Shown: positions 7,101-41,980, counted from the stretch's first letter. The stretch is DNA of 64,000 nucleotides from Candidatus Omnitrophota bacterium (GCA_021735655.1 JAIPGM010000002.1:258747-322746); one strand, 5' to 3'. Notes: a model not told the origin generated them from the letters alone. Translations and numbers: made by a program.

Positions 7101-7393
7101 ATTTCCTCGCCCAATTCTTTAGCCTTGAGGCTAAGCTTTTGATGCTCATCTTGCAAGCTGAGATACTCAGCCTGAGTTTTTGTTAAGGCGACAATTTCAT
7201 TTTTTAATTTTGTTAGTTCCCTTTTTGAAGATTTAAGGTTTTCTGACAAGGCAGAAATTTTTTGTTGTTGCAAGTCAGGCTTAAGGCCAAACTTTGTACC
7301 CAGAGTACCTTTTAAAACTGAATCATCTTCGTTGTTAACTAAATACAGTACTAGGGCAATCGATACTCCAATTACAACAAAAATTAAAGTCAT
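4184..7393 (-). CDS. Elongation factor G paralog fused to an N-terminal TM anchor, coiled coil and acidic linker (1069 aa)
   Basis: Residues ~375-1069 are a complete EF-G ([31 protein letters not shown], domain [12 protein letters not shown]). Residues 1-21 are hydrophobic ([21 protein letters not shown]). Residues ~40-265 are heptad-like and K/E/L/Q-rich. Residues ~270-375 are an E/P/Q-rich linker. It is one uninterrupted ORF. Confidence 0.9.
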
Positions 7394-27310: not shown

Positions 27311-27952
27311 CTAACTTCCCTGCTTTACAAAAAATATTAAACTCTCTAACTCACAAGCCATATCAACGTTAGAAACAAATATATTATCAGGAACTTTCAA
27401 GGCAATTGGAGCGAAGTTAAGTATTCCCTTAATATTTGAATCGATTAACTGGTTAGCTATGTCTTGAGCTACTTCAGGCGGCGTAGCTATTATTGCTATT
27501 TTTATTCCATCTTTTTTAATCATTTCACTCAAATTATCAATAGCCTGAACTACGATACCTTTTTTTGTTTTACCAATCTTTTTCTGATCATTATCAAAAA
27601 TTGCAGTAATTTTTATATTAAACTTTGAAAAACCATCGAACCCCAACAAGGCCCCACCGACTCTACCTAGGCCTACCAAAGCAATATTCCAATCAATATG
27701 GGTTCCGACTATTTTTTGGATTTGTCCAATTAAAAAATCTACGTTATAGCCCACACCGCGCTTGCCAAATTCACCAAAATAAGACAAATCCTTTCTAAAC
27801 TGAGACGGAGTTACGTTTAAAAACTTAGTTATTTTATCCGAAGAAATAACTTCAACTCCCTGCTTTTTTATTTTTCGTAAGTTACGTAAATACAGAGTAA
27901 GCCTTCTGATCGTTTCCAAAGAAAAATGTTTCTTGTCTTTACTGTTTTTCAT
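27311..27952 (-). CDS. rex: Redox-sensing transcriptional repressor Rex
   Basis: 213 aa. N-terminal winged helix (TIRRLTLYLRNLR...ISS..I...L.V...QFRKDLSYFGEFGKRGVGY) followed by the Rossmann motif (VGLGRVG). Confidence 0.85.
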   Translation of the reverse strand: MKNSKDKKHFSLETIRRLTLYLRNLRKIKKQGVEVISSDKITKFLNVTPSQFRKDLSYFGEFGKRGVGYNVDFLIGQIQKIVGTHIDWNIALVGLGRVGGALLGFDGFSKFNIKITAIFDNDQKKIGKTKKGIVVQAIDNLSEMIKKDGIKIAIIATPPEVAQDIANQLIDSNIKGILNFAPIALKVPDNIFVSNVDMACELESLIFFVKQGS

Positions 27953-29270
27953 CAGATACTCTAGTATCCCGAGCTATACCTAAATCGGTAGGCGCCCGGC
28001 CTAAAGATTTAAGTAAATTAATAGTCTCAGTAATCTGATCATTAATCTCCGCTTCGCCATAGGCCTTATTAGGATAAATTGCATAATACTTTCGATATTT
28101 ACGCGGAGTTAAATTGAGCATTACCGAATTTCCACCCGAAGACAATCCTTTCTTGCGTGCCTCTAAAGATAAGGTCTCAAAGGCTGTGGTTATAAGAATT
28201 TTAGCCGCTTCTGGATCGATTAAACGAGCCAAAGCAAGGTTTTTTAAAACTTCTTCTTCAGAAGGAGCTTTGCAATTGGCCAAGAGACTATTCGGGTGAG
28301 GCAAAAATGGCCCAAATGAGTACATCTCAGAGCCCAAAGCCTTAGTTAGATAAATATCATTTATCGTATCTTGATTAGTTTGACCAGGCAAACCAATCAA
28401 GGCACCAGTCATAACTAAATACCCTAATTCATGGGCTTTTTTTAGATGATCCAGGCGACTATCTAAAGTTTGGCCAGGATGTAATTTCTCATAGATTTTA
28501 GGATTTGAAGTTTCAAAACGCATCAACAATGCTCTTGCCCCAGCCTGATAAAGCTTAAGCAATCCATCAAGCCCGACTTCACCAAAGCTTATACAAATCA
28601 AAACTGGAACCGTTTCTTTAATTTTTCTTATAATTTCCGCTAGATCATCTATGCTATAGTGTGGGTCTTCTCCCGATTGCAAAACTAAAGCCTGGAAACC
28701 ATACTCTTTAACGGCACCAACTGCCGTCTCAATGATTTCCGCCGCTGACATTCGATAACGCATAAGATTCTGGTTGTCAGCTGAAATACCACAATATTGA
28801 CAACTCTGCTTACAAAAATTAGATATTTCGATTATCCCATGAATACAACATGAATTTTTATGGTACTTTTGACGCAAAAAGTTAGCGGTTCGATAAAGAA
28901 TATCTTGAGCCTCAGGCTTATCTAACTTAAGTAAATAAAATAACTCTTCTTTACTCAATTGAATATTTTCTAAAGCTTTATCTAAAATAAGACTTAGCTG
29001 CCTGTCGATATTTTTTTTGCTAAGATCCAAGCGAGACAATCGTAAGTCCATATCCTGAAGTTCGAAAAAAAGCTCATTCCAAGCTGCCAAGGTCTCCTCA
29101 GCCTCCTTTGGGGAAACTTTTTTAATTACAAACCCGCCTTGAGCCGACACATAATCACCGGGTTTGATATCATAAAACTCATTGATTGCTTTTTTTTCTT
29201 CACCAAAGTAATCAACCAGAACGGTTTTCCCAACTATTTCTTTTACCTTGCCAGGTATTGCATAACACAT
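27939..29270 (-). CDS. hydE: HypC-like domain fused to a HydE-like radical SAM enzyme
   Basis: The N-terminal MCYAIPGKVKEIVGKTVLVDYFGEEKKA...GDYV..QGGFVI is the HypC/HupF signature (MC[LIVA][AG][LIV]P). It is followed by the radical SAM motif CKQSCQYCG and a HydE/BioB-like core (ETSNPKIYEKLHP, GLPGQT, FGPFLPHP). Start placed at the second Met so that Cys is residue 2. The ORF track starts 4 codons upstream, at 29282. Confidence 0.8.
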   Translation of the reverse strand: MCYAIPGKVKEIVGKTVLVDYFGEEKKAINEFYDIKPGDYVSAQGGFVIKKVSPKEAEETLAAWNELFFELQDMDLRLSRLDLSKKNIDRQLSLILDKALENIQLSKEELFYLLKLDKPEAQDILYRTANFLRQKYHKNSCCIHGIIEISNFCKQSCQYCGISADNQNLMRYRMSAAEIIETAVGAVKEYGFQALVLQSGEDPHYSIDDLAEIIRKIKETVPVLICISFGEVGLDGLLKLYQAGARALLMRFETSNPKIYEKLHPGQTLDSRLDHLKKAHELGYLVMTGALIGLPGQTNQDTINDIYLTKALGSEMYSFGPFLPHPNSLLANCKAPSEEEVLKNLALARLIDPEAAKILITTAFETLSLEARKKGLSSGGNSVMLNLTPRKYRKYYAIYPNKAYGEAEINDQITETINLLKSLGRAPTDLGIARDTRVSDEKQ

Positions 29271-29284
29271 AACAAACTCCAATT

Positions 29285-29527
29285 TTACTCTACATCAAAC
29301 GATAGCACCTGTATCACTGTTCCCGGGAAAAAAGTTAGCTCTAGCTCAGCCTTAGCACAAGGAGTCCCCTCAGCTAAAATTTTAAAGGTTTCTCTAAATG
29401 AATCCTCCTTGATCCCGTTCAGCTCACCGATTTTTATATGTATCTTAGACACTACCTTTGAGCCTTCTTTTTCAGCGTGTTCACAAATTCCTTTAATCAA
29501 TGGTTTTATGATATGGGTTTCGTGCAT
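29285..29527 (-). CDS. hypA: HypA-like nickel metallochaperone lacking the zinc-finger domain (80 aa)
   Basis: Carries the N-terminal MHE nickel-binding motif and a HypA-like core (MHETHIIKPLIKGICEHAEKEGSKVVSKIHIKIGELNGIKEDSFRETF). It stops before the CxxC...CxxC zinc site of full-length HypA. Confidence 0.65.
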   Translation of the reverse strand: MHETHIIKPLIKGICEHAEKEGSKVVSKIHIKIGELNGIKEDSFRETFKILAEGTPCAKAELELTFFPGTVIQVLSFDVE

Positions 29528-29982
29528 GTTTTTACCTCAATAATTAAATTAGTTAATTCCTTTAATGTTTTAGCAACACTTTGTGAAATCTCATCACCAA
29601 ACTCAAGAGTTTTCGGTTGCACCCCTAAAAGAAAAATATCAGCTTCGGTTTCTTTACCCAAAAAATCTAAAAACATCCTTGGTGATAAATCATGAGTAGT
29701 GAATCCCGATTTCACGATATCTTCCTTAACTAAAATCTCATAATCTCCTGGCTCTTTACCAAGATCAACAACATCAACTATTAAAATCGTATTTGGACGT
29801 TCTTTGGTTATTTTGCCAATATAGTTTTCTGGTGCTGAACCAACATCAATACAGGTTGCATCCACTTTCTGGTAAACAGTCTCAATGAACTTAGGACCGA
29901 AAGCATCGTCACCACGCATAATATTTCCTACCCCAACGATAACGACTTTCCCTTTAAAAACATTCCGAAAAATATTATTCAT
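29506..29982 (-). CDS. Hydrogenase maturation endopeptidase (HycI/HyaD family)
   Basis: 158 aa with the VVIVGVGNIMRGDDAFGP signature (GN..[RM]GDDG.G), plus the later D and H residues typical of the family. Confidence 0.8.
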   Translation of the reverse strand: MNNIFRNVFKGKVVIVGVGNIMRGDDAFGPKFIETVYQKVDATCIDVGSAPENYIGKITKERPNTILIVDVVDLGKEPGDYEILVKEDIVKSGFTTHDLSPRMFLDFLGKETEADIFLLGVQPKTLEFGDEISQSVAKTLKELTNLIIEVKTCTKPIS

Positions 29983-30022: not shown

Positions 30023-30634
30023 TTACTCAGCAGTAAGGGTGGTTTCACGTCGACAGCGGGCGCATAGAATCTTAACTCGATCAGAACGCCCATCATCCCT
30101 TAAAGCTGAAACAATATTTTCATCTACAATACCAAGACTTTTAAGATGGGAAAGATAAAGCGTAGGACTTGAGTAGGTAAGCTCACCTAATTTTTGAGAA
30201 ATCCATTTAAGGTGATCTTTGCAGGCTATTACATCGCCGCAAACTTCACAAAGTTGTAGTTCTTTTTCTATTTGTTCTTGGGCTTGAGCGCGGTCAAAAA
30301 ATGATAACTCCCAATCAGTAGATAACTTAATACCTTGCTTATCAGCCAAACAGGCTGCTTCACACTGTCCACAAAAAATACAAGTATCAGTATAATGAAT
30401 CATCAGCCGCTTAGGATCATCTTTATTTTCAGTAATATCCTTATGAGAAATCGCTTCAACTGGGCAAACCTCTTCACAACCGCAACAACCAACACATTTT
30501 TGATCATTAAACTTCGGCTGACCGCGAAAGTTAGGATGAGCCACATGGGCCTCTTTAGGGAACTTTGACGTGTAAGGCCCCTTAATCAATGCCTTGATTG
30601 CTTCAACCAACTCTCTTAATTTTGGCAACTTCAT
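30023..30634 (-). CDS. 2x[4Fe-4S] ferredoxin subunit (NuoI/HycF/MbhN-like) with an extra C-terminal Cys-rich region
   Basis: CVGCCGCEEVCP and CIFCGQCEAAC cluster motifs. The C-terminus carries CEVCGD...CARC. Confidence 0.8.
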   Translation of the reverse strand: MKLPKLRELVEAIKALIKGPYTSKFPKEAHVAHPNFRGQPKFNDQKCVGCCGCEEVCPVEAISHKDITENKDDPKRLMIHYTDTCIFCGQCEAACLADKQGIKLSTDWELSFFDRAQAQEQIEKELQLCEVCGDVIACKDHLKWISQKLGELTYSSPTLYLSHLKSLGIVDENIVSALRDDGRSDRVKILCARCRRETTLTAE

Positions 30635-30651
30635 AAATTTATCTTAAAAAA

Positions 30652-30727
30652 GAAGCGTAAAACGTAGTCTAGACTCAATATTCTTGAATCACCCGTGGCT
30701 AAAACTTTTCGTCTACGTTTACGCTTC
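30652..30727 (-). other. Long intra-operon stem-loop (15-16 nt arms) spanning the mnhG stop codon
   Basis: GAAGCGTAAAACGTAG (30652..30667) and CTACGTTTACGCTTC (30713..30727) are reverse complements apart from one extra A. An inner palindrome AGTCTAGACT sits at 30665..30674. Confidence 0.4.
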
Positions 30728-31057
30728 TCCTTCCTTATCCTCTTTATATTTATCAATTACACTACCTTCCCAAAGTTTAACCCCGGCCCGATGGGCTCCT
30801 CTGGCTACAGCATGGGCAGCTACCGGCGAGGTTAACAAAAGAAAAACCGCACAAAGAAGCGCCTTAAAGCCCGCGGCAATAAAGCCAACAATTAAAAATG
30901 TTCCAAAAAGAATACTACAAGTTCCTAAAGTAACACACTTGGTGGCTGCTTGAAGACGATTATATACATCCGGAAGTCTTACCAAACCTAAGCAACCAAC
31001 TATATCAAAAGCTAACCCACCGGAAATGAATATCAAACCAATAATATCACTCATCAA
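30719..31057 (-). CDS. Mrp-type cation/H+ antiporter subunit G (MnhG/MbhC-like)
   Basis: 112 aa with 3 TM helices and the signature LGLVRLPDVYNRLQAATK. Confidence 0.8.
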   Translation of the reverse strand: MMSDIIGLIFISGGLAFDIVGCLGLVRLPDVYNRLQAATKCVTLGTCSILFGTFLIVGFIAAGFKALLCAVFLLLTSPVAAHAVARGAHRAGVKLWEGSVIDKYKEDKEGEA

Positions 31058-31442
31058 ACCCTCTTCCCTCTAAATATTTCGAAAGAGCTAAGGTGCTAAT
31101 AAAACTTTGAAGCGCCCAAGCAATTCCAATATCCAGATACCAAGATCTTCCAGTCGAAATAGTTAAAACTGCACAAAGCCCCACAATCATAATCCCTAAA
31201 ATATCAATCGCTACAATTCTGTCGGCTCCGGTAGGACCTTTAGCAATACGATAAAGCGCCAGTACACATCCTAGAATTAGAATGTAAAGTGCCCTCCCAA
31301 CAAGACCACTATAGACGAGATTTTCAGGAAAAAGAAAACCAAAAGGCCTAAAAATAATTAAGCCTAAAACAATACTAAGGGTAGTTGCTCCAAACAGCCA
31401 ATTTAACATCTTTTTGCTTTCAGCTTTTTTCTTTTTAGCCAT
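31047..31442 (-). CDS. Mrp-type antiporter subunit F (MnhF/MbhB-like)
   Basis: 131-aa membrane protein with the motif KGPTGADRIVAIDILG. Confidence 0.75.
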   Translation of the reverse strand: MAKKKKAESKKMLNWLFGATTLSIVLGLIIFRPFGFLFPENLVYSGLVGRALYILILGCVLALYRIAKGPTGADRIVAIDILGIMIVGLCAVLTISTGRSWYLDIGIAWALQSFISTLALSKYLEGRGFDE

Positions 31443-31447
31443 AGTAA

Positions 31448-31945
31448 TTATTCAAATATTTTTCTTAATATTTTCTCAAACCGCTCAATAATAACTTTGG
31501 TAGCAGCTTCAGTCTGAGTTTCCTTCACGTCAATCCAATGTACATATAAAACACCATCATCCTTGTCAATATCTACAGTTAAAGTTCCTGGAGTAAGTGT
31601 TATTGAATTCGCTAAAAATGTAAGCGCTGTATCTGTCTTAAGCGTAGTTTTCACCTTAACAATGCCAGGTTTTATCGGTAAATTAGGATGTAGAATCCTG
31701 TAGGCAACATCAATATTTGCTTTAAAACACTCCCATAGAAATCTCGGAAGATAATAAACAAAAAAATACCAGTATCTCAAAGGGTGCTTAAGGACATGAG
31801 GACGTTTTACAAACAAATCTCCGGTTAAAAAAGCACAAAGAGCGGCTGCGAATACACCAATAGCTAGATGCTGCCAATCCGGTACCCAGTTCAATAAGCA
31901 CCATACAACAAAGGCAACTAAAAATAAAACTATTTTTCTTTTCAT
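31448..31945 (-). CDS. Mrp-type antiporter subunit E (MnhE/MbhA-like)
   Basis: 165 aa with two N-terminal TM helices and the MnhE-like pattern (ANIDVAYRILHP...P.IV...T.L....ALT.LANSITLTPGT). Confidence 0.7.
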   Translation of the reverse strand: MKRKIVLFLVAFVVWCLLNWVPDWQHLAIGVFAAALCAFLTGDLFVKRPHVLKHPLRYWYFFVYYLPRFLWECFKANIDVAYRILHPNLPIKPGIVKVKTTLKTDTALTFLANSITLTPGTLTVDIDKDDGVLYVHWIDVKETQTEAATKVIIERFEKILRKIFE

Positions 31946-33441
31946 TGGACTGCTCTGATAATATTTATTGTGTAGTTTTTTGTGCCAAGCAAAACCCCAG
32001 AGGCTTTAAGCAGGAATTGTTCTCTTATCCCCGGAAAAAATAAAAACCCACCTAAAAGGCAAACTAAAACTAAGATAATCATCGAAGCCTTCATGAAAGC
32101 AGGCACTTCAGTAATATTTTCCCACTGTTTCCTAAGATTTCCAAAAAATGCATACTTCATAACCTTGGTAAAAGAAGCAAGGGTCAAAATACTAGCCAAC
32201 ACTGCCCAAAAACCATACCAATACTGGTTGGCCTGAACACAAGCAATAATAATAATTAACTTGCTCCAAAAACCATTAAACGGCGGAATTCCAGCGATTG
32301 ACATAGAAGCTCCAAAAGCAGTAGCTGAGGTAACTGGCATTCTTTGACTTAATCCCCCCATTTTTTTTAAATCTCTGGTTCCGGTTGTGTATTCAACAGC
32401 ACCAGAATTTAAAAAAAGAAGAGATTTGAATATTGAGTGATTGAACAAATGGAATAAGCCTCCGATTATACCTAAAGGAGTGCCCAAACCTATCCCCAAA
32501 ATAACATAACCAATCTGGCTTATTGAATGATAGGCAAGCAAACGTTTCAAATCCCACTGTCCGATAGCCAAAAATACACCAACCACCATTGAGAGCGCAC
32601 CGAGCGCCATCAAAATCATTGAAAGCTGACTATTCACACCTAAAATATTAAAGAATATACGGCAAAGAGTGTATACTCCTAATGATTTAATCAATACCCC
32701 AGAAAGCATAGCTGATATTGGAGCTGGTGCTGAAGGATGAGCATCAGGAAGCCAGGCATGAAACGGCACCAAAGCTGCTTTTAAACCAAAACCCATAAGA
32801 AACAATACACTTACTAATATTAAAACATTTGGGCAGTCGGCTTGAGACAAAACTAAACCCATATCAGCCATATTTAGGGTTGAAGTGCAACTATATAGAA
32901 ATACAATACCTAAAAGAATAAATAATGACCCTACGGTACTCATCAGGGCATATTTAAAGGCGGCTTCAAGCTCATGGCGTTCAGTTCCAAAAGCAACCAG
33001 AGCATAACTAGCAACAGAGGCAATCTCTAAAAAAACAAAAAGGTTAAATATGTCGCCAGTTATCAAAACCCCGTTCATCCCTCCCAACATCAATAGAAAT
33101 AAGGTGTAAAATTTCCATTTAGCGGTGAACTTTTCCATGTAGTTAATTGAAAAAAGAGCTACACAAAAAGCAACTAAATTAACCGTAACTAACATAAAAC
33201 TAGTTAGACCGTCTAAGACAAAAGTTATCCCGATTGGCGGCTTCCAAGATCCAGCAGCATAAACCAACACTCCATGCTCAGCCACAAGTTTTACACTGTA
33301 AAGCGACAAAAATAAAAGAGCTGTTGTGCATAAATTACCAATTAAATCCGGCAGCCATTTACTTTTTTTACCAAACAAAACAGTTAAAAAGGCACCCGAA
33401 AGACAAACTACAACAAAAATTGGTATAATATTAGAACTCAT
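31942..33441 (-). CDS. Proton/cation-translocating antiporter-like subunit (MnhD/NuoM/NuoN family)
   Basis: 499-aa polytopic protein with conserved motifs (FHAWLPDAHPSAPAPISAMLSG, LLAYHSISQIGY). Confidence 0.85.
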   Translation of the reverse strand: MSSNIIPIFVVVCLSGAFLTVLFGKKSKWLPDLIGNLCTTALLFLSLYSVKLVAEHGVLVYAAGSWKPPIGITFVLDGLTSFMLVTVNLVAFCVALFSINYMEKFTAKWKFYTLFLLMLGGMNGVLITGDIFNLFVFLEIASVASYALVAFGTERHELEAAFKYALMSTVGSLFILLGIVFLYSCTSTLNMADMGLVLSQADCPNVLILVSVLFLMGFGLKAALVPFHAWLPDAHPSAPAPISAMLSGVLIKSLGVYTLCRIFFNILGVNSQLSMILMALGALSMVVGVFLAIGQWDLKRLLAYHSISQIGYVILGIGLGTPLGIIGGLFHLFNHSIFKSLLFLNSGAVEYTTGTRDLKKMGGLSQRMPVTSATAFGASMSIAGIPPFNGFWSKLIIIIACVQANQYWYGFWAVLASILTLASFTKVMKYAFFGNLRKQWENITEVPAFMKASMIILVLVCLLGGFLFFPGIREQFLLKASGVLLGTKNYTINIIRAVQ

Positions 33442-33443
33442 AT

Positions 33444-33779
33444 CTATCCCCGCAACTCTCTAATTTTAGTAATATCAAATGTTTGATACTTTTCATAAAT
33501 TCGCATAGCGATTGCAATAAGCAAAGCTGTTGATGCCAAACCAATAACAATTGAAGTCAAAACTACTGCCTGAGGTAAGGCATCGACCATATTATTAATT
33601 GTTGTGTCTGGTGAATATATCGGAGAACGCCCCTTTATCCGATAAGCAACTAAGATAAATAAAAGATTTACTGCATATTCAGCGATGATAACACCAATAA
33701 TAATCTTAATTATATTACGTTTACGTAAAATACAATAAAGACCAACACAAAAAAGCACCAAACAAAGCAAGTAGATCAT
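33444..33779 (-). CDS. Mrp antiporter subunit C (MnhC/NuoK/MbhG-like)
   Basis: 111 aa with 3 TM helices and the pattern DALPQAVVLTSIVIG. Confidence 0.8.
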   Translation of the reverse strand: MIYLLCLVLFCVGLYCILRKRNIIKIIIGVIIAEYAVNLLFILVAYRIKGRSPIYSPDTTINNMVDALPQAVVLTSIVIGLASTALLIAIAMRIYEKYQTFDITKIRELRG

Positions 33780-34231
33780 TTTCCTTCGGTTCCTCCATCA
33801 AATTTAAGCAAAGTAAGGGCAATAAATATAGCAAACAAACCGGCCCCGACCTTTAAACTAATTGCAATATTACAAAGTGGAATAATCCCAGCTGAAAAAA
33901 GTCTAAACGGCTCCCCCTTAGGAAGAAAGTTTAAAAAGAAATACCCACCAGTAAACCCCAAAAGGGCAATTGCTAAAAACATTATTGCTCCAAAACCTTC
34001 AAAAAAAGAAATAGCTTTCTTAGGCATTCTTTTTAAAGCCGCGTCTTTACCATAAGCAAGCATTAAATGAATAAAGCTGAGTGCAATAATTACCCCTCCG
34101 GCAAATCCTCCACCGGGGGAAACATGACCATGAGAAAGAATATAAATACCAAAAAGAAGTATTATGCCCACGGTAAGACGAGTAATTGTCTTAACGATTA
34201 CCGACATTCCCTTTTCATGCTCTTTGCTCAT
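33776..34231 (-). CDS. Mrp antiporter subunit B (MnhB/MbhF-like)
   Basis: 151 aa with the motif GHVSPGGGFAGGVI, typical of the MnhB domain. Confidence 0.75.
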   Translation of the reverse strand: MSKEHEKGMSVIVKTITRLTVGIILLFGIYILSHGHVSPGGGFAGGVIIALSFIHLMLAYGKDAALKRMPKKAISFFEGFGAIMFLAIALLGFTGGYFFLNFLPKGEPFRLFSAGIIPLCNIAISLKVGAGLFAIFIALTLLKFDGGTEGK

Positions 34232-34780
34232 TTATTCATCCTCTGGGTCTACTTTCTCATTAATTTTTTTACGCCCGACCCTGCGCACTAGGGTTAAAAC
34301 ACCTATTACTGCGGTAAATAAAACTGTAGCTTCACCTAAGGTGTCATAGGCTCGATAATCAAGAATAACTGAAGCAACAATATTAGTTGCTCCGGTCTTA
34401 GCTAAGCCTTGCTTAAGATAAGTATCGGCCACCCGCATAATTGGATAACCAAAACGTGGCAAATCACCAATTGCCTTATAGGCTGCAAATAAAAATAAAC
34501 TAACAAAGCCTAAAATAATTGAGGTATTAAGTAACCATCGACCACTAGTTGAAAAAGGTAAATCTTTTTTTAAAGTTGCCCGAATCAAAATGATTAAACA
34601 TAATATCTCAACTACTAATTGAGTAATTGCAACATCGGGAGCTTTGAGAATAATAAACGTTATCGAAAGCCCTAGCCCTACGGCACCGACGGCAATAACT
34701 GAGGAAAGCAGATCTTTAAGCTCAACGGCGACAATTGCCCCAACAATCATAAAAATTAATAAAATATATAGCTCAAACAT
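34232..34780 (-). CDS. MbhD/MbhE-like subunit (DUF4040 plus MnhB-related N-domain)
   Basis: 182 aa. The N-terminal half resembles DUF4040 (the C-terminal module of MnhA). The C-terminal half carries the MnhB-type motif NIVASVILDYRAYDTLGE. Confidence 0.7.
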   Translation of the reverse strand: MFELYILLIFMIVGAIVAVELKDLLSSVIAVGAVGLGLSITFIILKAPDVAITQLVVEILCLIILIRATLKKDLPFSTSGRWLLNTSIILGFVSLFLFAAYKAIGDLPRFGYPIMRVADTYLKQGLAKTGATNIVASVILDYRAYDTLGEATVLFTAVIGVLTLVRRVGRKKINEKVDPEDE

Positions 34781-34787
34781 ATTTAAG

Positions 34788-36446
34788 TTACTTTAAAAGT
34801 ATATAAAAAAGTATCCCCATACCTAAAAGACACCAGGACAAATAAGTAGATAAAATGCCATTATGCAAATAACGCAAAATACTGTTAAAGCCAAAAGTAA
34901 TTTTACTACCGACTTCATAAATATCGAATAATTTCTTATTAGCTAAACTATAGATAACCTTTAACAGGCCCAACTCTTTGATTGTGTTATAAAAATCAGT
35001 TCCTGAAACTCTCATCTCGGGATATTTTTCAGTGCTTTCTCCGCCCATAAAAATATTAACCTGGCGACTCTTTGAAACTGTGCCCAAAAGATAAACTATT
35101 AGACCAATGACCATGCCAGCAAGAATCAAAGCCGTAGCTAAACTTGCATTCCAGACTCCGGAAAACTCTACTGGCTGCCAAATAACCGGAAAGATAAAAA
35201 ACTTAAGCGGAAGCCGGTAAGCAAATACACCAAAAACTACACATAGTAAGGCTAAAATTGCTCCCGGTATCCACATCGCTAGCCCAACCTCTTTTTTCTG
35301 ATCTTTACTGAGTGCTTTTACGGTTGTGCTTTCTTGACCCAAAAATACAGCATGAACAAGTTTCATGAAACTTGCCAAAGTTAAGGCACTTCCAAACATG
35401 GCTGAAACTAACCAAACGACCCATAACCCACCACTGTTTTTAGCCGTCTCAATGATACCCTGGTAGATCATCCATTTAGAAACAAAACCATTAAATGGCG
35501 GAACCCCAGAGATAGCAAATGAAGCAATCAAAAAAGTAATAAAAGTAATCGGCATATATTTAGCAAGACCGCCAAGTTTATCTAAATTAGTAGTTTTGGT
35601 CCTTTTTTCTACAGAGCCACTGGTTAAAAATAAACAAGACTTATAAATCGCATTATTCAGCATATGAAATAGTCCACCGGCAATACCGATAATTGTACCC
35701 GTACCAATACCTAAAATCATATAACCAACTTGACTTACCGCATGATAACCAAGGAGTCTCTTTAAGTCATGTTGGACTAAAGCCATCATAACCGCAGCTA
35801 TAATAGTAAAGCTACCGATAAACATCAAAAATGTATTCATGCTTAAACCTAAACGAAACATTTCCAAGGAAATTCTAATTAAAAGATATATTCCCAAAAG
35901 TTTGTCCAAAGAAGCAGGCAAATAAGCCGCAACCGGAGTTGGTGAGTCTTCAGCTGCGTCAGGAACCCAGGTATGAAAAGGCATAGCCCCGGCTTTAGCA
36001 AAAGCTCCGACCGCCAAACAAAGATAGGCAAAAGTAGCCACCTTAGAAGTCAATGGTATTGATATTAAATCCATCTCGAATAAACCGGTAAGTTTCCAAA
36101 TTAAGGCAACTCCCAAAAGCATTAAAGCATCGGTTCCACCAATTATAATAAATGCTTTCTTTGCCGTAGCTGAGCTATTATCCTTTTTACCAAAGCCAAT
36201 TAAAAGATAAAGAAGCAACCCCAAGAATCCCCAGAAAACCATGAACAGAATTAAATTATTGGCAAAAACCACACCCAAAGAAGCAATCAAAGTAAAAAAG
36301 ATATAAAGGTAGTAACGTGAAATTCCACGTTGGGCACGCATGTACCCCATCGAATATACAGTTACCAAAATAGAAAAAAACCAAATAAATATTCCGACAA
36401 ATATCGACAAAGCATCAAATCTAAAATAATTCGCTAAAAAATTCAT
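34788..36446 (-). CDS. Antiporter-like membrane subunit (NuoL/MnhA/MbhH/HyfB family)
   Basis: 552-aa polytopic protein (FHTWVPDAAEDSPTPVAAYL, LLGYHAVSQVGYM). Confidence 0.85.
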   Translation of the reverse strand: MNFLANYFRFDALSIFVGIFIWFFSILVTVYSMGYMRAQRGISRYYLYIFFTLIASLGVVFANNLILFMVFWGFLGLLLYLLIGFGKKDNSSATAKKAFIIIGGTDALMLLGVALIWKLTGLFEMDLISIPLTSKVATFAYLCLAVGAFAKAGAMPFHTWVPDAAEDSPTPVAAYLPASLDKLLGIYLLIRISLEMFRLGLSMNTFLMFIGSFTIIAAVMMALVQHDLKRLLGYHAVSQVGYMILGIGTGTIIGIAGGLFHMLNNAIYKSCLFLTSGSVEKRTKTTNLDKLGGLAKYMPITFITFLIASFAISGVPPFNGFVSKWMIYQGIIETAKNSGGLWVVWLVSAMFGSALTLASFMKLVHAVFLGQESTTVKALSKDQKKEVGLAMWIPGAILALLCVVFGVFAYRLPLKFFIFPVIWQPVEFSGVWNASLATALILAGMVIGLIVYLLGTVSKSRQVNIFMGGESTEKYPEMRVSGTDFYNTIKELGLLKVIYSLANKKLFDIYEVGSKITFGFNSILRYLHNGILSTYLSWCLLGMGILFYILLK

Positions 36447-37630
36447 TTTATGCCTAGTTTACTTTTTATCTTTTCGGTTTTACTTTGTGAAAGGCGAACT
36501 AAATCCTCACCGTTATATATTTTTTTACCCTTAGTGTTACGTACCGCCACTCTCTCAGTACAACAATAACAAGGATCAATGGACGCTAAAATTATCGTTG
36601 CATCAGAAATCGTCTCGCCAACCACAGTTGCCTTATAGGTCGGTAAATTCATAAAAGTAGGTGCTCTTACTTTGTGACGAGCCGGTCGATTGGTCCCATC
36701 GCTTTTCACATAATGAAAACATTCACCCCGCGGCGCCTCAATATGACCGATACCTTCACCTGAAGGAATACTTTTAATCTTAGCATCAATTTCTGTATCC
36801 GGAAGGTTTAAAAGGCAATACTTAACCATATCTATCGATTCAAAAGTCTCTAAAATTCTTACTACCGCTTTATCGAAAACATCGCCATTTTTAGTCACAA
36901 TCATATTCCAGTTAAACTGATCATATGCCCCATAAGGAGAATTTTTACGTAGATCTCTGGCCACCCCCGAAGCCCGAGATACCGGACCGAGAGCACAAAA
37001 GTTAATTGCCTCATCCTTAGTGAGGATACCTATTCCTTTAGTCCTAGCATGTAACACCGGGTCATCGATTACTGCCTTTTTAAGCATTTCAAGAGTCGGG
37101 ATAATCGAATCTATCTTTTTTATCGCAAAAGGTATATCTTCTTTTTTTATGTCTCGCCGAACCCCTCCCGGCTTAAACATAGCATAGTTGTTGCGATTTC
37201 CCGAAAGTGCCTCCATAACATCAAGGATTTCCTCACGCAACTTCCAAGCCCACATATAAACAGTATTGTAACCTAAAAAATGTCCGGCAAGACCCAACCA
37301 TAAAAGATGTGAATGAATACGTTCTCCCTCAGCGATAATTGTTCGGATATATTTAGCCCTCATTGGCACTTCTAGAGGGATAACATCCTCAACTGCCCGA
37401 GTATAAGCATAAGGATGACTGGTTGAACAAATACCACAGATTCTCTCAATTACAAAAGTAGATTGGTCGAAGGTTTTTCGCTCAGAAAGCTTTTCAATGC
37501 CGCGATGGTTATAACCAATCTGAACATCGATATCAACAACTGTCTCCCCATCTACAGTTAAGCTGAAAAACTCAGGCTCTTCCTGTAAAGGGTGATATGG
37601 TCCGATTGGAACTATAGTTCGTTTTCCCAT
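36443..37630 (-). CDS. Group 4 [NiFe] hydrogenase large subunit (MbhL/EchE/HycE-type, NuoD homolog)
   Basis: Both Ni-Fe ligand pairs are present: N-terminal RICGICSTSH and C-terminal DPCYCCTER. A ~33-aa C-terminal extension follows, as expected for an endopeptidase-processed subunit. Confidence 0.9.
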   Translation of the reverse strand: MGKRTIVPIGPYHPLQEEPEFFSLTVDGETVVDIDVQIGYNHRGIEKLSERKTFDQSTFVIERICGICSTSHPYAYTRAVEDVIPLEVPMRAKYIRTIIAEGERIHSHLLWLGLAGHFLGYNTVYMWAWKLREEILDVMEALSGNRNNYAMFKPGGVRRDIKKEDIPFAIKKIDSIIPTLEMLKKAVIDDPVLHARTKGIGILTKDEAINFCALGPVSRASGVARDLRKNSPYGAYDQFNWNMIVTKNGDVFDKAVVRILETFESIDMVKYCLLNLPDTEIDAKIKSIPSGEGIGHIEAPRGECFHYVKSDGTNRPARHKVRAPTFMNLPTYKATVVGETISDATIILASIDPCYCCTERVAVRNTKGKKIYNGEDLVRLSQSKTEKIKSKLGIK

Positions 37631-38103
37631 TATAATCCTCGATCTCTAATTGATGAGTCGTCCCACTCTTGATAATCGCGTCTCAAAGGATATACACCTT
37701 GTGGCCACTCATCGGGCAAAAGCAACCGCTTCAACTCTGGATGACCGCGAAAATTGACTCCTAACATTTCAGCTATCTCACGTTCAATCCAATTAGCACC
37801 TTCAAATATTGGGGCTAATGAATCTATTTCTAATTTGCTCTTATCCAACTTAACCCGGAAAGAAACTACTAAATTTATATCTTCAAAGGTAAAATGATAA
37901 AGAATTTCTATATGTTTAAATGTATCTACTCCCGAAGCAATATTGAATCTGGCCCCCAAATTTTTAAAAACATAGGTCGCAACCTTAACAATCGCCTGAG
38001 GTTTAATCTCAATATAGACCCGAGTTAAGGTCTTATCGAAAATATCTAAAATATCTTCGTCGAATCTTTTCTTTAAATCTTTAATAACTTCGCTTCTGGT
38101 CAT
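37630..38103 (-). CDS. NuoC/MbhK-like 30 kDa-type subunit
   Basis: 157 aa with the C-terminal motif EREIAEMLGVNFRGHPELKRLLLPDEWP. Confidence 0.85.
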   Translation of the reverse strand: MTRSEVIKDLKKRFDEDILDIFDKTLTRVYIEIKPQAIVKVATYVFKNLGARFNIASGVDTFKHIEILYHFTFEDINLVVSFRVKLDKSKLEIDSLAPIFEGANWIEREIAEMLGVNFRGHPELKRLLLPDEWPQGVYPLRRDYQEWDDSSIRDRGL

Positions 38104-38540
38104 TTTGCTTGAGGGTTTCCAGCCCCACTTAATTTATCGATTAACTTAACAACCCCGGCAATAATCGCCTCTGGTTTCGGCGGGCACCCAGGTATATATA
38201 CGTCTACCGGAATAATTTTATCAACTGGCAAAGGACAGTTATAGCTATGAATAAACATACCTCGCGACAAAGAGCACTCACCAACAGCCACTACTACACA
38301 AGGCTTCGGCATCTGCTCATATACTTCTTTAATCCGAGGAATGCACTTTCGATTAGCAGAACCAGTTACTAAAAGCACGTCAGCATGTTTTATGCTTCCG
38401 GCTAAAAGCATGCCAAACCTTTCGATATCAAAGCGTGGGGTTAAACAATCCAATATTTCAATATCGCAATTATTGCAACTACCAGTTGAAAGATGAAAAA
38501 CCCATGGTGACTTGAGTAATGCTTTAAGTTTTATGCTCAT
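38100..38540 (-). CDS. [NiFe] hydrogenase small subunit, NuoB/MbhJ-like ([4Fe-4S] N2-type)
   Basis: Cys ligands at CNNC, GEC and PGCPP. Start placed at the ATG at 38540, which overlaps the upstream stop as ATGA. The tracked 5' extension uses TTG and overlaps the NuoH-like gene. Confidence 0.85.
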   Translation of the reverse strand: MSIKLKALLKSPWVFHLSTGSCNNCDIEILDCLTPRFDIERFGMLLAGSIKHADVLLVTGSANRKCIPRIKEVYEQMPKPCVVVAVGECSLSRGMFIHSYNCPLPVDKIIPVDVYIPGCPPKPEAIIAGVVKLIDKLSGAGNPQAK

Positions 38541-39460
38541 AAACCCTTTAAGGCTAAAATAACTGCGATTATAGCAATAATCAACATTGGCCCCCAAAAA
38601 AATCTTATTGCCTGATCAATTCTAACTCTAGGATTAGTATTACGAATAACGGTGATCAAGGCAACCAAACCAACATACCTCAACACCCCGTATATAAGAT
38701 TTAAGCCGTTTAGTCTTAACCCACCAATAAAAGTAATCATTATAAAGAAAGGCAAGACAAAGAACAACATATTTTTCATAAGTTTGTATACCGCAAGCGG
38801 GGCTCCCGAATACTCAACTAACGGTCCACCAATAATTTCGGTCTCAGCTTCAGGAATATCAAAAGGCACTAAGGCTAGTTTTGCCTGTACACACATAATA
38901 ATTACAATAAAAGCCAAAAACCCCGACCAGCTTCCTAAGATTACGCCATTTTGAGCCTGATAAGTGATAATTTCACCTAAACGCAAGCTAAACCCGCTTT
39001 GAATAACCGGAACTAAAACCGCTAGAATAAATGGCAATTCATAACTTAAAACTAATTTCATTTCTCGTGATGCACCAATACTAGCTAAAGGATTGCCTGA
39101 AGCAAAGCCTCCGATAATTATGCTTATTGAAGGAATAGCCAATAAATAAACTACAACAACAATATCACCAACAAAGGTCCTCAGCGGATTAAAATTATTA
39201 AACCAAAGCACCGTAGACACAACAATAACACTCCCTAAACCAATAATCGGAGCGCTCAAAAAACTAAACTGAGAAGCGCCTTTAGGAACCAAAGTCTCTT
39301 TTCCAAGAAGCTTCACCAAATCAATAAGCGGCTGTAGGATTGGCGGCCCAACGCGATACTGAACTCGAGCGGTAACTTTACGGTCAACCCAGCTAGTTAA
39401 CAAACCAATAATGGCGGTTAACAAGAATCCGAAAATAAAAAGATAAACTAAATAAATCAT
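38537..39460 (-). CDS. NuoH/HycD/MbhM-like membrane subunit
   Basis: 307-aa polytopic protein with the N-terminal motif DRKVTARVQYRVGP and a later FDIPEAETE motif, as in the NADH dehydrogenase subunit 1 family. Confidence 0.85.
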   Translation of the reverse strand: MIYLVYLFIFGFLLTAIIGLLTSWVDRKVTARVQYRVGPPILQPLIDLVKLLGKETLVPKGASQFSFLSAPIIGLGSVIVVSTVLWFNNFNPLRTFVGDIVVVVYLLAIPSISIIIGGFASGNPLASIGASREMKLVLSYELPFILAVLVPVIQSGFSLRLGEIITYQAQNGVILGSWSGFLAFIVIIMCVQAKLALVPFDIPEAETEIIGGPLVEYSGAPLAVYKLMKNMLFFVLPFFIMITFIGGLRLNGLNLIYGVLRYVGLVALITVIRNTNPRVRIDQAIRFFWGPMLIIAIIAVILALKGL

Positions 39461-40023
39461 ACTTTTTCTCTATCCCAATGAGTAGAATGTACTATTAAAT
39501 TGTCACCAACTAAAAATGAATCTTTGGTTAATAAATCATCCGAATTTACTAATTTTAATGCTCCGTATGGGCATGATTTTATGCAAAGCGGTTCATTTTT
39601 TTTATCTCTTCGATCAAAACAAAAATCACAATTATGAATTAAATAAGGCACATGCTCAGGATAAATGGTTCCGTAAGGGCAAGCATGAGAACAAGTTTTG
39701 CAACTTACGCAACGCATATTATGCCTAATCAAAAGGTTGTCTTTTTCGGTTTGTTGTTCCAAAGCCTCAAATGGGCAAGCATTAACACAGTGAGGTTCTT
39801 GGCATCTACGACAAACCAAAGCATAAGTTGCCAATTCAGCTACTGAAACTATTCCATTATTTATCGGATCTTGAGTGTGGTAAAAATAGCTGCACTCTAA
39901 CTTACATTTTTTGCATTCTCCGGCCGCACAAATATCAAGATCAACAAAAAGCCGTTGACCACTATCAGATTTAGCTTCGGTATTTAATTTTCCTTGATGT
40001 AGTTGTTCGGCACTTGTATCCAT
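39457..40023 (-). CDS. Poly-[4Fe-4S] ferredoxin (HycB-like electron-transfer subunit)
   Basis: 188 aa with four Cys clusters (CAAGECKKCKLEC; CRRCQEPHCVNACP; CVSCKTCSHACP; CDFC...CIKSCP). Confidence 0.8.
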   Translation of the reverse strand: MDTSAEQLHQGKLNTEAKSDSGQRLFVDLDICAAGECKKCKLECSYFYHTQDPINNGIVSVAELATYALVCRRCQEPHCVNACPFEALEQQTEKDNLLIRHNMRCVSCKTCSHACPYGTIYPEHVPYLIHNCDFCFDRRDKKNEPLCIKSCPYGALKLVNSDDLLTKDSFLVGDNLIVHSTHWDREKV

Positions 40024-40030
40024 AATAGCT

Positions 40031-40855
40031 CTAATCCCAAATATTAGGAAAATTCTTTATTTTGTCGTAAGTAAACACTGGTCCATCTTTGCAGGCATAA
40101 TAAGTCCCTAGCCGACAATGACCGCATTTACCAATTCCACAAGACATATTTTTTTCCATTGAAAGATAGATATTCTTCTCCTTAAAACCCAACTCAAGCA
40201 ATTTTTTAGTAGAAAACTTCATGGCGATTGGCGGCCCGCAAACAATAGCTATTGCCTCAGGGCAATTCATATCTAAATCATCCAAAATTGTAGTAACAAC
40301 ACCTACGTTACCTTTCCAATCAGGGCTAGCTTTATCAACAGTAAGTCTTAAATTTAAATCATCTCGCTTTGCCCAGCCGGCTATCTCAGTTTTATAGAGT
40401 AGCTCCTGTGAGGTTTTACAGCCACCCCGAAAAGACAGCTTCTTAAACTCCCCGCTTCGGGCAAAAAACTCATACATCAAACTACGCAAAGGAGCAAATC
40501 CACATCCACCACCGACGACAACGATTTCCTTACCTTTAAATTCATCAATCGGGTAACCAGTCCCAAAAGGGCCTCTCACTCCAATCAAATCGCCTTTTTT
40601 AAGCTGATGAACTTTATCGGTAACCTTGCCAACTTTCATTACCGTGACTTCCATTACATCTCTCACTGATGGCCTCGATGAAGGTGTAAATGGCGCCTCA
40701 CCCACGCCGGGAACAGTTAATTCGATAAATTGACCGGTCTCAAAACCCAAAGGCTCTTTAGGACGAAAACGTATGGTTTTAATCGTTGGCGTTTCGGTTA
40801 TTACATCAAGAACTTCGGCCTCAATCGATCTGTAAGGATTCTCGATTTTATGCAT
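40031..40855 (-). CDS. FAD/NAD(P)H-binding oxidoreductase with a C-terminal [2Fe-2S] site (AsrB / sulfhydrogenase gamma / PyrK-like)
   Basis: 274 aa. Ferredoxin-reductase-type fold (RFRPK...GQFIEL...PFTPSS; VVVGGGCGFAPL) and a C-terminal CGIGKCGHC...C motif. Confidence 0.8.
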   Translation of the reverse strand: MHKIENPYRSIEAEVLDVITETPTIKTIRFRPKEPLGFETGQFIELTVPGVGEAPFTPSSRPSVRDVMEVTVMKVGKVTDKVHQLKKGDLIGVRGPFGTGYPIDEFKGKEIVVVGGGCGFAPLRSLMYEFFARSGEFKKLSFRGGCKTSQELLYKTEIAGWAKRDDLNLRLTVDKASPDWKGNVGVVTTILDDLDMNCPEAIAIVCGPPIAMKFSTKKLLELGFKEKNIYLSMEKNMSCGIGKCGHCRLGTYYACKDGPVFTYDKIKNFPNIWD

Positions 40856-41873
40856 TATCCACCAACTTCTTTAAGACTTTTCGAATATCAATTTTAGCCG
40901 GGCAAGCTGTTATACAACGGCCACAGCCGGTACAAGCATACTCAGCGGCCACCTTGGGAAAAAAATCAAATTTTTTCTCAAACCTATTACGCAATCTCAT
41001 CCAAAGCCTCTCTCGAGGATTGGCTCCGCCAGCAACCCGAGCAAAATCTTTTATCATACAAGAATCCCAAATGCGTAAACGCTCCATCTTGTCTTTATCT
41101 TTTTGATCATACAAAAGAAAACAATGGCAGGTTGGGCAAATTGCATTACAGGCTCCACATTCAACGCAAGTTTTTGCTTCGTCTTCCCAAATTTTAGACT
41201 CATAGTTTTTCTGAACCACATCTTTGAAGCTGCTTTGGTCAGGAACGGTATTTTTACTTAGGTTAGCGTTAGCTTCTCCAGTTATTTTTTCACGCTTCTT
41301 ATCTCTGGTAACAACTAGATCTTCTCGAGTTTGACGAAAAAGAAGAGTATATTGCTTCAGAATACTCTCACCTTTATCGGATCCGCTTTCAACAACAAAG
41401 CCATCATCAACCACAGAAAGATTTAGATCAAAATTATCTTTAGGATACGGTTTTAGACCTAAAGCCGCACAAAAGCAAGTATCAATTACGCAAGTGCAAT
41501 CAGCTGAAATAATAAGGCTATCCTGACGTAACTTTAAATAAAAAGGATCCTGATAATCGGGATTATCAAAAACATAGTCTTGAATTTTAAAACCTTTCAG
41601 ATCACAAGCCTTGACTCCGACAATAGCAAAAGGCTTACTCGGAGACTGCGGAAGATCCGGACTAAAACCAGAAGCTACCTTCTGACGAGCCTTCAAAAAA
41701 AATGATTTTACCGGCTCAAAAGCCCTTACCTCGCCAACAACGAATTCACTAGTCGAGCTATCGAACTTATCGTAAAACCGCTGCTGACCTTTTTTGACCG
41801 GAACAAATACCTGATAATCTTTATTTAGGTTTTCAAGAAATTTAGAAAAATTATCGGAAGAGATATAATACAT
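40848..41873 (-). CDS. 4Fe-4S dicluster protein (AsrA / sulfhydrogenase beta-like)
   Basis: 341 aa with CVECGACNAICPTCHC and CTGCGRCITACP motifs. It is translationally coupled to the AsrB-like gene through an 8-nt overlap. Confidence 0.75.
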   Translation of the reverse strand: MYYISSDNFSKFLENLNKDYQVFVPVKKGQQRFYDKFDSSTSEFVVGEVRAFEPVKSFFLKARQKVASGFSPDLPQSPSKPFAIVGVKACDLKGFKIQDYVFDNPDYQDPFYLKLRQDSLIISADCTCVIDTCFCAALGLKPYPKDNFDLNLSVVDDGFVVESGSDKGESILKQYTLLFRQTREDLVVTRDKKREKITGEANANLSKNTVPDQSSFKDVVQKNYESKIWEDEAKTCVECGACNAICPTCHCFLLYDQKDKDKMERLRIWDSCMIKDFARVAGGANPRERLWMRLRNRFEKKFDFFPKVAAEYACTGCGRCITACPAKIDIRKVLKKLVDNA

Positions 41874-41920
41874 CAGAAGTCCTTGTTCTGTTTATGATTG
41901 ATACTTAAATTAACCATACT

Positions 41921-41938
41921 TTGTGATTTTATTCACAA
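41921..41938. promoter_or_regulatory. Rex operator (perfect 18-bp palindrome TTGTGA-N6-TCACAA)
   Basis: TTGTGATTTTATTCACAA matches the Rex box consensus TTGTGAAnnnnTTCACAA. It lies between the predicted promoter and the first gene of the hydrogenase operon, which itself encodes Rex. Confidence 0.7.
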
Positions 41939-41951
41939 AGTATTAAAGGCT

Positions 41952-41980
41952 AAATTAACATAAATGCTATAATCTGTCAA
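41952..41980 (-). promoter_or_regulatory. Promoter of the hydrogenase operon
   Basis: Minus strand reads TTGACA (41980..41975), a 17 nt spacer ending in TGT (extended -10 like), then TAATTT (41957..41952). The Rex box begins about 14 nt downstream. Confidence 0.45.

Follow-up and report, generated by a model that had tools for sequence, protein, structure and literature searches.

The hun operon on the minus strand (41873-30023) of a 64-kb window of Candidatus Omnitrophota DNA, the window being the whole stretch analysed, is understood, close to certainly, as a canonical operon in which 16 genes, hunA to hunP, encode a 16-subunit, Mrp-linked, membrane-bound [NiFe] hydrogenase of the Hun type. 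As recognised from sequence, the enzyme combines an Mbh-like catalytic core (HunP, HunE, HunF, HunG) and a membrane anchor (HunD) with a complete Mrp-like membrane arm that includes two antiporter-like subunits. With respect to electron supply, we see an even chance that NAD(P)H (reduced nicotinamide adenine dinucleotide or its phosphate) is the physiological substrate of HunB, the AsrB-like flavoprotein of the operon. The wider proposal, that Hun truly couples NAD(P)H oxidation to ion translocation, as a hydrogenase of complex I-like construction, with protons taking the place of quinone and an AsrAB-type flavoprotein that of NuoEFG, is offered tentatively, its prospects being short of even.

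The arrangement itself is already known and named, and it has never been purified. Glass et al. (2021, bioRxiv 10.1101/536078 / Environ Microbiol) introduced the name Hun for the 16-gene operon, with CGIC-CYCC as the distinctive motif pair, and described HunAB as resembling AsrAB and HunG as belonging to HydDB group 4g, yet distant from other 4g members; their subunit lettering (hunA-P) maps one-to-one onto the genes of the window. Atribacteria, Firmicutes, Omnitrophica, Elusimicrobia, Bacteroidetes and cultured Kosmotoga isolates are listed there as carriers of the whole operon. Other papers report, from Saganbacteria, a group 4 hydrogenase accompanied by Mrp subunits, cooF, asrA and asrB, its closest relatives being in Zixibacteria and Omnitrophica (Matheus Carnevali 2019, PMC6349859), an 'Mbh-Mrp-oxidoreductase' type in Elusimicrobia, its oxidoreductase function being called unknown there (Meheust 2020, bioRxiv 765248), and an Atribacteria hydrogenase co-transcribed with an adjacent oxidoreductase, for which electrons 'from ferredoxin or NADH' were already suggested (Bird et al. 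2019). 'Group 4g, Mrp-linked' hydrogenases are listed for metagenome-assembled genomes (MAGs) of Omnitrophota (Williams et al. 2021), and the group 4g label has been published for HunG and for MAGs of Omnitrophota and Cloacimonadota, including Ca. Celaenobacter antarcticus; the published relatives of the window's HunG are group 4g in the HydDB scheme. The first-pass annotation of this DNA, made from the sequence alone, had taken an AsrAB-like module on an Mbh/Mrp operon to be new unless a known subgroup carried it. That novelty falls away, the type having been named Hun in 2021 and described in three other papers, and class 4g having been published for HunG together with AsrAB-like HunAB. A literature search for later work on 'Hun' gave only the original preprint.

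Hydrogenase core and proposed electron-input chain

HunG (36443-37630, 395 residues; Pfam Complex1_49kDa and NiFeSe_Hases) carries the motifs RICGICSTSH and DPCYCCTER, followed by a C-terminal tail of 35 residues. A gene for a large-subunit C-terminal maturation protease, hycI (29506-29982, minus strand), starts 40 nucleotides after hunP; its product matches TIGR00142 at 5.9e-33 and 113.7 bits, just under the cut-off of 119.1, and the general protease model TIGR00072 at 103 bits against a cut-off of 47. The closest solved structure to HunG is MbhL of Pyrococcus furiosus (6cfw_L, 5.8e-90, 42% identity), and the second-best match is HycE of Escherichia coli (7z0s_E). For comparison across phyla, one genome per GTDB species was scanned, with at least 583 confirmed relatives of the large-subunit family, and a set of 82 loci was assembled from the best 80 of these and two further loci, mostly from other phyla. 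The large subunits of all 82 loci show R[IV]CGIC and DPCY[CS]C[TA]ER (CYCC in 78 and CYSC in 4) ahead of a tail of 28-51 residues, and the small subunit HunE keeps its four Cys in at least 99% of 77 homologues. The sequence features of a competent group 4 [NiFe] hydrogenase, comprising two CxxC pairs, a tail, an endopeptidase gene and a four-Cys NuoB-like subunit, are thus all present, and HunG looks like a real hydrogenase on account of its CxxC pairs, its predicted cleavable tail and the hycI gene. Both statements of the first-pass annotation on this point, that the large subunit retains the CxxC pairs of a real hydrogenase and that its tail is matched by a co-encoded HycI-like protease, are borne out.

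HunG is 100% identical to a protein of a Candidatus Omnitrophica MAG at NCBI. Its relatives at 83-91% identity comprise more than 100 protein clusters, almost all from Omnitrophota, and the relatives of HunA follow the same pattern at 64-76%. Outside its own family, identity to HunG drops to ~55% and then to at most 45%; the ~55% group includes WP_012745069.1 of Kosmotoga olearia, the closest cultured relative. Among metagenomic proteins, P0241 / P0391 (583 residues) have a related large subunit fused to a NuoC-like partner, with CYSC replacing CYCC.

The two genes at the head of the operon encode an AsrA / sulfhydrogenase-beta-like iron-sulfur protein (hunA, 40848-41873, 341 residues; Pfam Fer4_22, 4.4e-31) and an AsrB / sulfhydrogenase-gamma-like flavoprotein (hunB, 40031-40855, 274 residues; Pfam FAD_binding_6, NAD_binding_1 and DHODB_Fe-S_bind). 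Among solved structures they match P. furiosus sulfhydrogenase I best, HunA its beta subunit (9nez_B, 1.8e-42) and HunB its gamma subunit (9nez_C, 5e-56). Against the NCBIfam models ShyB, HydB and AsrA, every score of HunA is under the cut-off, that for TIGR02910 (AsrA) being 134.9 bits (3.8e-39) with a cut-off of 323; HunB reaches 243.3 bits (2.2e-72) in TIGR02911 (AsrB), for which 288.6 is required. By these matches and scores, which agree with the homology proposed in the first-pass annotation, HunA and HunB are members of the sulfhydrogenase beta-gamma/AsrAB superfamily and orthologues of neither.

Sulfur-compound reduction was once proposed for the beta subunit of sulfhydrogenase, and the homology of HunA/HunB to AsrAB and to the beta-gamma pair could suggest that they serve as an output, where a sulfur compound (polysulfide, S0 or sulfite) is reduced with electrons from H2 or ferredoxin, as in anaerobic sulfite reductase. 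We regard such a function as very improbable. A possible reduction of sulfur compounds is mentioned by Bird et al. (2019), but the 21 genes of the cluster include no siroheme subunit of AsrC type, HunA and HunB remain under the equivalog cut-offs of AsrA and AsrB, and H2 oxidation at a group 4 site would, by what is established for such enzymes, consume the ion gradient.

The residues expected of an electron-input module are strongly conserved. An alignment of 62 HunA homologues shows 15 Cys kept in 95% or more of the sequences, 14 of these without exception, and all 15 recur in sulfhydrogenase I beta. In HunB, the flavin motif GEAPFTPSS, the RGPFG, GGGxGxAP and CGPP motifs and the [2Fe-2S] motif CGIGKCGHC...CKDGPVF are conserved mostly at 95% or above among 68 homologues, and the flavin, nucleotide and cluster motifs align with sulfhydrogenase gamma; HunB thus shows the flavin motif, GxGxxP, CGP and C-terminal [2Fe-2S] Cys of an FNR/PyrK-type flavoprotein. 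HunC, a polyferredoxin of HycB/CooF type (39457-40023, 188 residues; Pfam Fer4_11, 3.9e-16), keeps 12 Cys, sufficient for three clusters, in 96% or more of 71 homologues, and shows a fourth set of four Cys in under half of them, the window copy included. HunP (30023-30634, 203 residues) is a HycF/NuoI-like 2x[4Fe-4S] subunit, matching the NCBIfam formate hydrogenlyase iron-sulfur subunit at 2.1e-24, under the curated cut-off, and its eight cluster Cys are invariant in 51 homologues. Since cluster Cys are conserved in HunB, HunA, HunC, HunP and HunE, an electron chain leading from flavin adenine dinucleotide (FAD) and the [2Fe-2S] cluster through the clusters of HunA, HunC, HunP and HunE to Ni-Fe is plausible. 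The wiring through a HycB-type and a HycF-type subunit, as in formate hydrogenlyase, argues by analogy for HunAB as the input module. HunP has in addition a C-terminal extension (residues 129-194), whose Cys 129, 132, 191 and 194 are kept in ~98-100% of the 51 homologues; they suggest an extra metal site, which is absent from discussion in the Hun literature examined.

Proposed electron donor, predicted Rex control and energetics

Four observations make up the case for NAD(P)H: HunAB is retained almost universally, the nucleotide site is conserved, both characterised relatives of HunB depend on NAD(P)H, and Rex is linked to the operon. Enough sequence for the first comparison, 4.6 kb or more ahead of the large-subunit gene, was available in 60 loci. 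In 58 of them hunA and hunB immediately precede the polyferredoxin gene, in the same orientation, and the synteny survey proposed in the first-pass annotation has found the AsrAB-like pair to be a regular part of the operon. The best 80 loci span ~19 phylum-level labels: Thermotogota, Ignavibacteria, Cloacimonadota, Neomarinimicrobiota, Calditrichota, KSB1, Aminicenantes, Clostridia, Bacteroidales, Omnitrophota, Planctomycetota, Kiritimatiellia, Ratteibacteria, Desantisbacteria, Spirochaetota, Latescibacterota, Fibrobacterota, Dependentiae and Auribacterota. The two exceptions are L032 (Ca. Celaenobacter antarcticus), which has neither HunA nor HunB, and L025, which has no HunA and retains HunB. 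Upstream in both loci (L032 5213-7476, L025 3428-5698) is a gene for a 620-residue protein that combines two [4Fe-4S] motifs with a GltD-like flavoprotein domain of NAD(P)H type, followed by one for a CBS-domain protein; the presence of such a flavoprotein in the loci without HunA lends support to the pyridine-nucleotide link, although the loci are just two and it is uncertain that these genes belong to the operon. L032 has in addition a second NuoH/B/C/D-like set, without a NiFeSe_Hases domain, just before the gene for the 620-residue protein.

Rex, the redox-sensing repressor, is tied to the operon by both site and gene. A predicted Rex operator, TTGTGAATAAAATCACAA on the minus strand (41921-41938), stands 48 nucleotides upstream of the hunA ATG and is the only site of the 64-kb window with at most one mismatch to TTGTGAANNNNTTCACAA, having itself one mismatch. 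It follows just downstream of a TTGACA hexamer (41975-41980); a scan with promoter consensus sequences singled out no -10 element here. The gene rex (27311-27952, minus strand; NCBIfam Rex, 257.6 bits, above the cut-off of 126) is encoded in the gene string that continues from hunP, overlapping its upstream gene by 14 nucleotides, so that the promoter-region operator and the Rex protein of a Rex regulon are found together. Of 58 related loci, 20 have an operator with at most two mismatches ahead of hunA or of rex-hunA; a background of 0.009 per kb would predict ~0.6 sites over the whole set. In 14 of 60 loci, hunA has a rex gene as its neighbour (12 co-directional, 2 divergent). The linkage is found in Omnitrophota, Clostridia, Bacteroidales, Planctomycetota, KSB1, Ratteibacteria, Desantisbacteria and Auribacterota, and Rex control of hun operons is, as predicted from these sites and genes, recurrent in several phyla. 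The Glass et al. preprint makes no mention of it. Consensus scans for internal promoters or terminators that would part hunAB from the rest gave no more sites than shuffled sequence, and an apparent terminator at 41916-41943 was rejected, being the Rex palindrome itself. With the genes overlapping and the sole near-consensus operator placed upstream of hunA, hunAB would belong to the same transcription unit as the rest; hun together with hycI, hypA, hypC-hydE, rex and hydG most likely forms one predicted Rex-repressed unit. The Rex control claimed in the first-pass annotation has thus gained in support, from the operator, the rex gene in the string and the linkage across phyla.

The computed energetics define the conditions under which NAD(P)H could serve. 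H2 formation from NADH has a reaction energy of +18 kJ/mol at 1 bar and of -10 kJ/mol at 1 Pa with NADH/NAD+ = 1, an NADPH pool at -370 mV gives -20 kJ/mol at 1 Pa H2, and the movement of one charge against 150 mV costs 14.5 kJ/mol. Only at ~1 Pa H2 could NAD(P)H drive H2 evolution and ion export together.

In the mechanism proposed for NAD(P)H as donor, a rising NADH/NAD+ ratio would make Rex leave its operator and the Hun complex would be produced. NAD(P)H would be oxidised at the HunB flavin, and single electrons would travel via ~10 iron-sulfur clusters, in the order HunB, HunA, HunC, HunP and HunE, to the Ni-Fe site for reduction of protons to H2, with proton reduction driving H+/Na+ export as in Mbh. 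The route would release energy only where partner organisms consume H2 and keep its pressure very low, and it would move at most ~1 charge per H2. Exposed clusters of HunA or HunC could provide a possible extra entry for ferredoxin.

Several points weigh against NAD(P)H as the donor. Rex also governs ferredoxin-linked fermentative enzymes in other bacteria, and its linkage, which fits an enzyme relieving NADH excess, is therefore not discriminating and no proof of NADH as substrate. The conservation of the HunB motifs is taken to reflect selection on the flavin/nicotinamide site, not on direction or physiological partner, and the residues on the strand after GxGxxP are partly conserved, with a preference for NADH or NADPH not readable from them. 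With an NADH ratio near 1, ion export needs H2 well under 1 Pa. The papers found offered no biochemical data on any Hun complex. Lastly, ferredoxin is the donor that Glass et al. (2021) infer, and the Atribacteria and Omnitrophota genome papers model the enzyme as ferredoxin-dependent.

In a Hun complex that used ferredoxin only, as proposed by these authors, ferredoxin reduced by the oxidation of pyruvate or aldehydes would deliver electrons to the clusters of HunA/HunC and the enzyme would work as an Mbh-like ferredoxin:H+ oxidoreductase exporting Na+/H+, the HunB flavin site being a side branch to NAD(P)+ or unused. The reaction is energetically easy at any realistic H2 level (computed at -24 to -45 kJ/mol at 100 Pa to 1 Pa H2), and HunG is closest to MbhL. 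To our knowledge, all characterised group 4d and 4e relatives use ferredoxin, and this counts for the same explanation. We nonetheless consider it unlikely, for Mbh and Ech accept ferredoxin without any HunAB-like proteins, and a dispensable flavoprotein would neither hold its FAD/NAD(P) motifs at ~95% and more across ~19 phyla nor persist in 58 of 60 operons. Moreover, NAD(P)H is the cofactor used by both characterised HunB relatives, the gamma subunit of sulfhydrogenase and AsrB.

A combination of both donors, with NAD(P)H reacting at HunB and ferredoxin at HunA/HunC, and with ferredoxin pulling NAD(P)H oxidation to H2 in the manner of the confurcating HydABC [FeFe] hydrogenase, would overcome the thermodynamic difficulty that NAD(P)H faces as sole donor and would fit Rex control; the HunB kept beside a GltD-like protein in L025 also resembles the subunit pairing of Nfn/Sud type. 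It is improbable all the same, given that HunB is of the FNR/PyrK type, which in Nfn is established not to be the bifurcating site, that HunA has no flavin domain, and that the operon includes no known bifurcating module (NuoF-like, HdrA, Etf, NfnB).

Regarding the direction of coupling, the terminal substrate is reduced with ion export in Mbh, Ech and complex I, and the reverse reaction is coupled to ion import. Two modes had been suggested in the first-pass annotation, H2 evolution driven by ion-motive force and an ion-exporting H2:NAD(P)+ oxidoreductase; both are unlikely, because they pair electron and ion directions opposite to the known coupling of the superfamily. Two modes agree with it: at very low H2, electrons from NAD(P)H could be released as H2 while ions are exported, at ~1 charge per H2 at best, or the gradient could drive the reduction of NAD(P)+ from trace H2.

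If Hun oxidises NAD(P)H as proposed, fermenters living at ~1 Pa H2 would, under Rex control, gain energy from the oxidation of NAD(P)H itself, and the ancestral Mbh/Mrp machine would have been joined to a pyridine-nucleotide input module a second time and independently. With NAD(P)H rather than ferredoxin as donor, models of fermentation energetics and of sediment H2 flux would change, and the result would bear on how complex I acquired its NADH module. The large-subunit family occurs in at least 583 species-representative genomes of anaerobes and is prominent in subsurface Atribacteria and Omnitrophota. The donor question is directly testable, because the cultured K. olearia has a HunG homologue and Kosmotoga isolates are listed as carriers; a search of the main text of Pollo et al. 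2017 for expression of the K. olearia operon gave nothing. Modest new arguments for testing the electron donor come from the linkage to Rex and from the conserved nucleotide site of HunB, and the coupling-direction argument and the cross-phylum locus survey are likewise modest additions of the present analysis.

Operon layout, maturation genes and surroundings

The 16 open reading frames are tightly packed in one direction, overlapping or 0-7 nucleotides apart except for an 84-nucleotide gap ahead of the last gene, hunP. Their order, AsrA-like, AsrB-like, polyferredoxin, NuoH, NuoB, NuoC, large subunit, NuoL, Mnh-type and NuoI, recurs in other surveyed loci. Beyond the input genes and hunG, the NuoH/MbhM-like membrane subunit is encoded by hunD (38537-39460; Pfam NADHdh, 4.2e-66), the NuoB-like hydrogenase small subunit by hunE (38100-38540; Oxidored_q6, 1.7e-28) and the NuoC-like subunit by hunF (37630-38103; Complex1_30kDa, 3.1e-28). 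The mechanical call for hunE begins at a TTG (38597), giving 165 residues and an overlap of 61 nucleotides with hunD. An alternative ATG (38540), 57 nucleotides downstream of the TTG, gives 146 residues and an ATGA overlap with the upstream gene; it is probably the true start, the TTG call being too long, since the homologues have 140-144 residues. The membrane arm consists of hunH, NuoL/MrpA-like (34788-36446, 552 residues; Proton_antipo_M, 1.6e-61), a fused MbhD and MbhE in hunI (34232-34780; MbhD, 2.8e-17, MbhE, 8.9e-11), the MnhB-like hunJ (33776-34231; MnhB, 5.2e-26), the MnhC/NuoK-like hunK (33444-33779; Oxidored_q2, 8.3e-25), the MrpD-like hunL (31942-33441, 499 residues; Proton_antipo_M, 4.5e-69), the MnhE-like hunM (31448-31945; MNHE, 2.1e-49), the MrpF-like hunN (31047-31442; MrpF_PhaF, 1.8e-17) and the MnhG-like hunO (30719-31057; PhaG_MnhG_YufB, 2.6e-24). 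Open reading frame positions and Pfam matches uphold the earlier gene list, order and coordinates for all 16 genes, including the two antiporter-like pumps of 552 and 499 residues, HunH and HunL, which both match Proton_antipo_M.

The gene string runs on without large gaps through hycI, hypA, hypC-hydE, rex and hydG to position 25814, making 21 genes in total, all on the minus strand. The short hypA (29285-29527, 80 residues) matches TIGR00100 at 1.8e-12, under the curated cut-off, and an 80-residue HypA is found at the equivalent position in L001, L002 and L083. It is followed by a hypC-hydE fusion (27939-29282; Pfam HupF_HypC and Radical_SAM), joining a HypC chaperone to a HydE-like radical SAM domain, which scores 248.9 bits in TIGR03956 (cut-off 254.6), and, after rex, by the last gene of the string, hydG, encoding a radical SAM tyrosine lyase (25814-27310; TIGR03955, 448.5 bits, above the cut-off of 312). 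The tail of hycI, hypA, fusion, rex and hydG also follows hun in the Omnitrophota genome L083; the genome L001 has rex directly upstream of hunA and a conventional tail of hypA, hypF, hypC, hypD and hypE. HydA, HydF, HypD, HypE and HypF were not found in the 64-kb window, and neither motif search nor Pfam revealed in it an [FeFe] hydrogenase or HydF that would account for hydG/hydE. The hypC-hydE fusion forms at least 120 protein clusters, in which every taxon-bearing source name is Omnitrophota; the fusion or fusion-HydG is also found in L083 (10001-13480), L084 (10001-11299) and L002 (20067-21179). Given that L084 places it after a group 3b [NiFe] hydrogenase and before an [FeFe] hydrogenase cluster, the fusion may serve an [FeFe] enzyme elsewhere or link both maturation routes.

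Upstream of the hun string are a 97-residue membrane protein and lipopolysaccharide core genes, and housekeeping genes lie downstream. An EF-G-like protein of 1069 residues, encoded at 4184-7393 on the minus strand of the window, has ~380 residues without Pfam match before its GTPase domain. Variants of the operon were seen in the survey: an Omnitrophota locus (L002, 11176-13004) encodes, between hunG and hunH, a PhoU-domain protein together with a third subunit of antiporter-like type (408 residues), and a Ratteibacteria MAG (L062, 7037-9565) has amidase-like and PD40-repeat genes between hunE and hunF and two perfect Rex operators ahead of hunA.

Comparison with known systems

Structurally, nothing sets the window operon apart from the Hun of Glass et al., the 16 genes and their order, the AsrAB-like HunAB, the CGIC/CYCC pair and the Mrp-type subunits being the same. 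It differs in that rex is placed downstream inside the string and not upstream, and in that the string extends to hycI, hypA, hypC-hydE and hydG; the donor there is ferredoxin, whereas the present analysis favours NAD(P)H. The 'Mbh-Mrp-oxidoreductase' type likewise groups cooF, asrA/asrB and Mrp subunits with a group 4 hydrogenase in a single region, and the Saganbacteria version adds a molybdopterin oxidoreductase that the window operon does not have.

P. furiosus Mbh (group 4d, 6CFW) has the catalytic core MbhJKLMN and the Mrp-like membrane subunits in common with Hun, and its coupling of H2 evolution to ion export is the model mechanism for Hun. Mbh, with its fourteen subunits MbhA-N, differs by having no HunABC module, one antiporter-like subunit instead of two, CLSC instead of CYCC, and ferredoxin as donor. 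Assignment of the operon as a plain Mbh was rejected in view of its two Proton_antipo_M proteins, three extra cytoplasmic subunits and only 42% identity to MbhL.

The closest solved homologues of HunAB are beta and gamma of P. furiosus sulfhydrogenase I (group 3b, 9NEZ), with which the conserved Cys and the FAD/NAD(P) motifs are common; that pair serves a soluble group 3 alpha-delta hydrogenase, and HunAB does not. Membership in group 3b was rejected, HunG having the Complex1_49kDa domain and matching MbhL/HycE and not group 3, and a true 3b operon from Omnitrophota (L084) looks unlike that of the window. Recent transfer of the beta-gamma pair from the Omnitrophota 3b hydrogenase was also rejected. 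Because HunA and HunB are only 29% and 41% identical to the Omnitrophota 3b pair, HunAB is, on this comparison, an old separate lineage. Salmonella AsrABC has AsrA and AsrB homologous to HunA and HunB; a reading of Hun as sulfite reductase was dismissed, both equivalog cut-offs not being reached and the cluster having no gene for the AsrC siroheme subunit.

In the manner of electron delivery, there are clear likenesses to group 4 enzymes with other inputs. E. coli formate hydrogenlyase (group 4a, 7Z0S) leads electrons through a HycB/CooF-type polyferredoxin and a HycF-type subunit to the Ni-Fe site, like Hun, and in Mfh/Mch of Thermococcus onnurineus (group 4b) a soluble substrate-oxidising module is similarly wired to a group 4 Ni-Fe site. 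The input in these systems is a formate or CO dehydrogenase, whereas in Hun it is an FNR-type flavoprotein pair.

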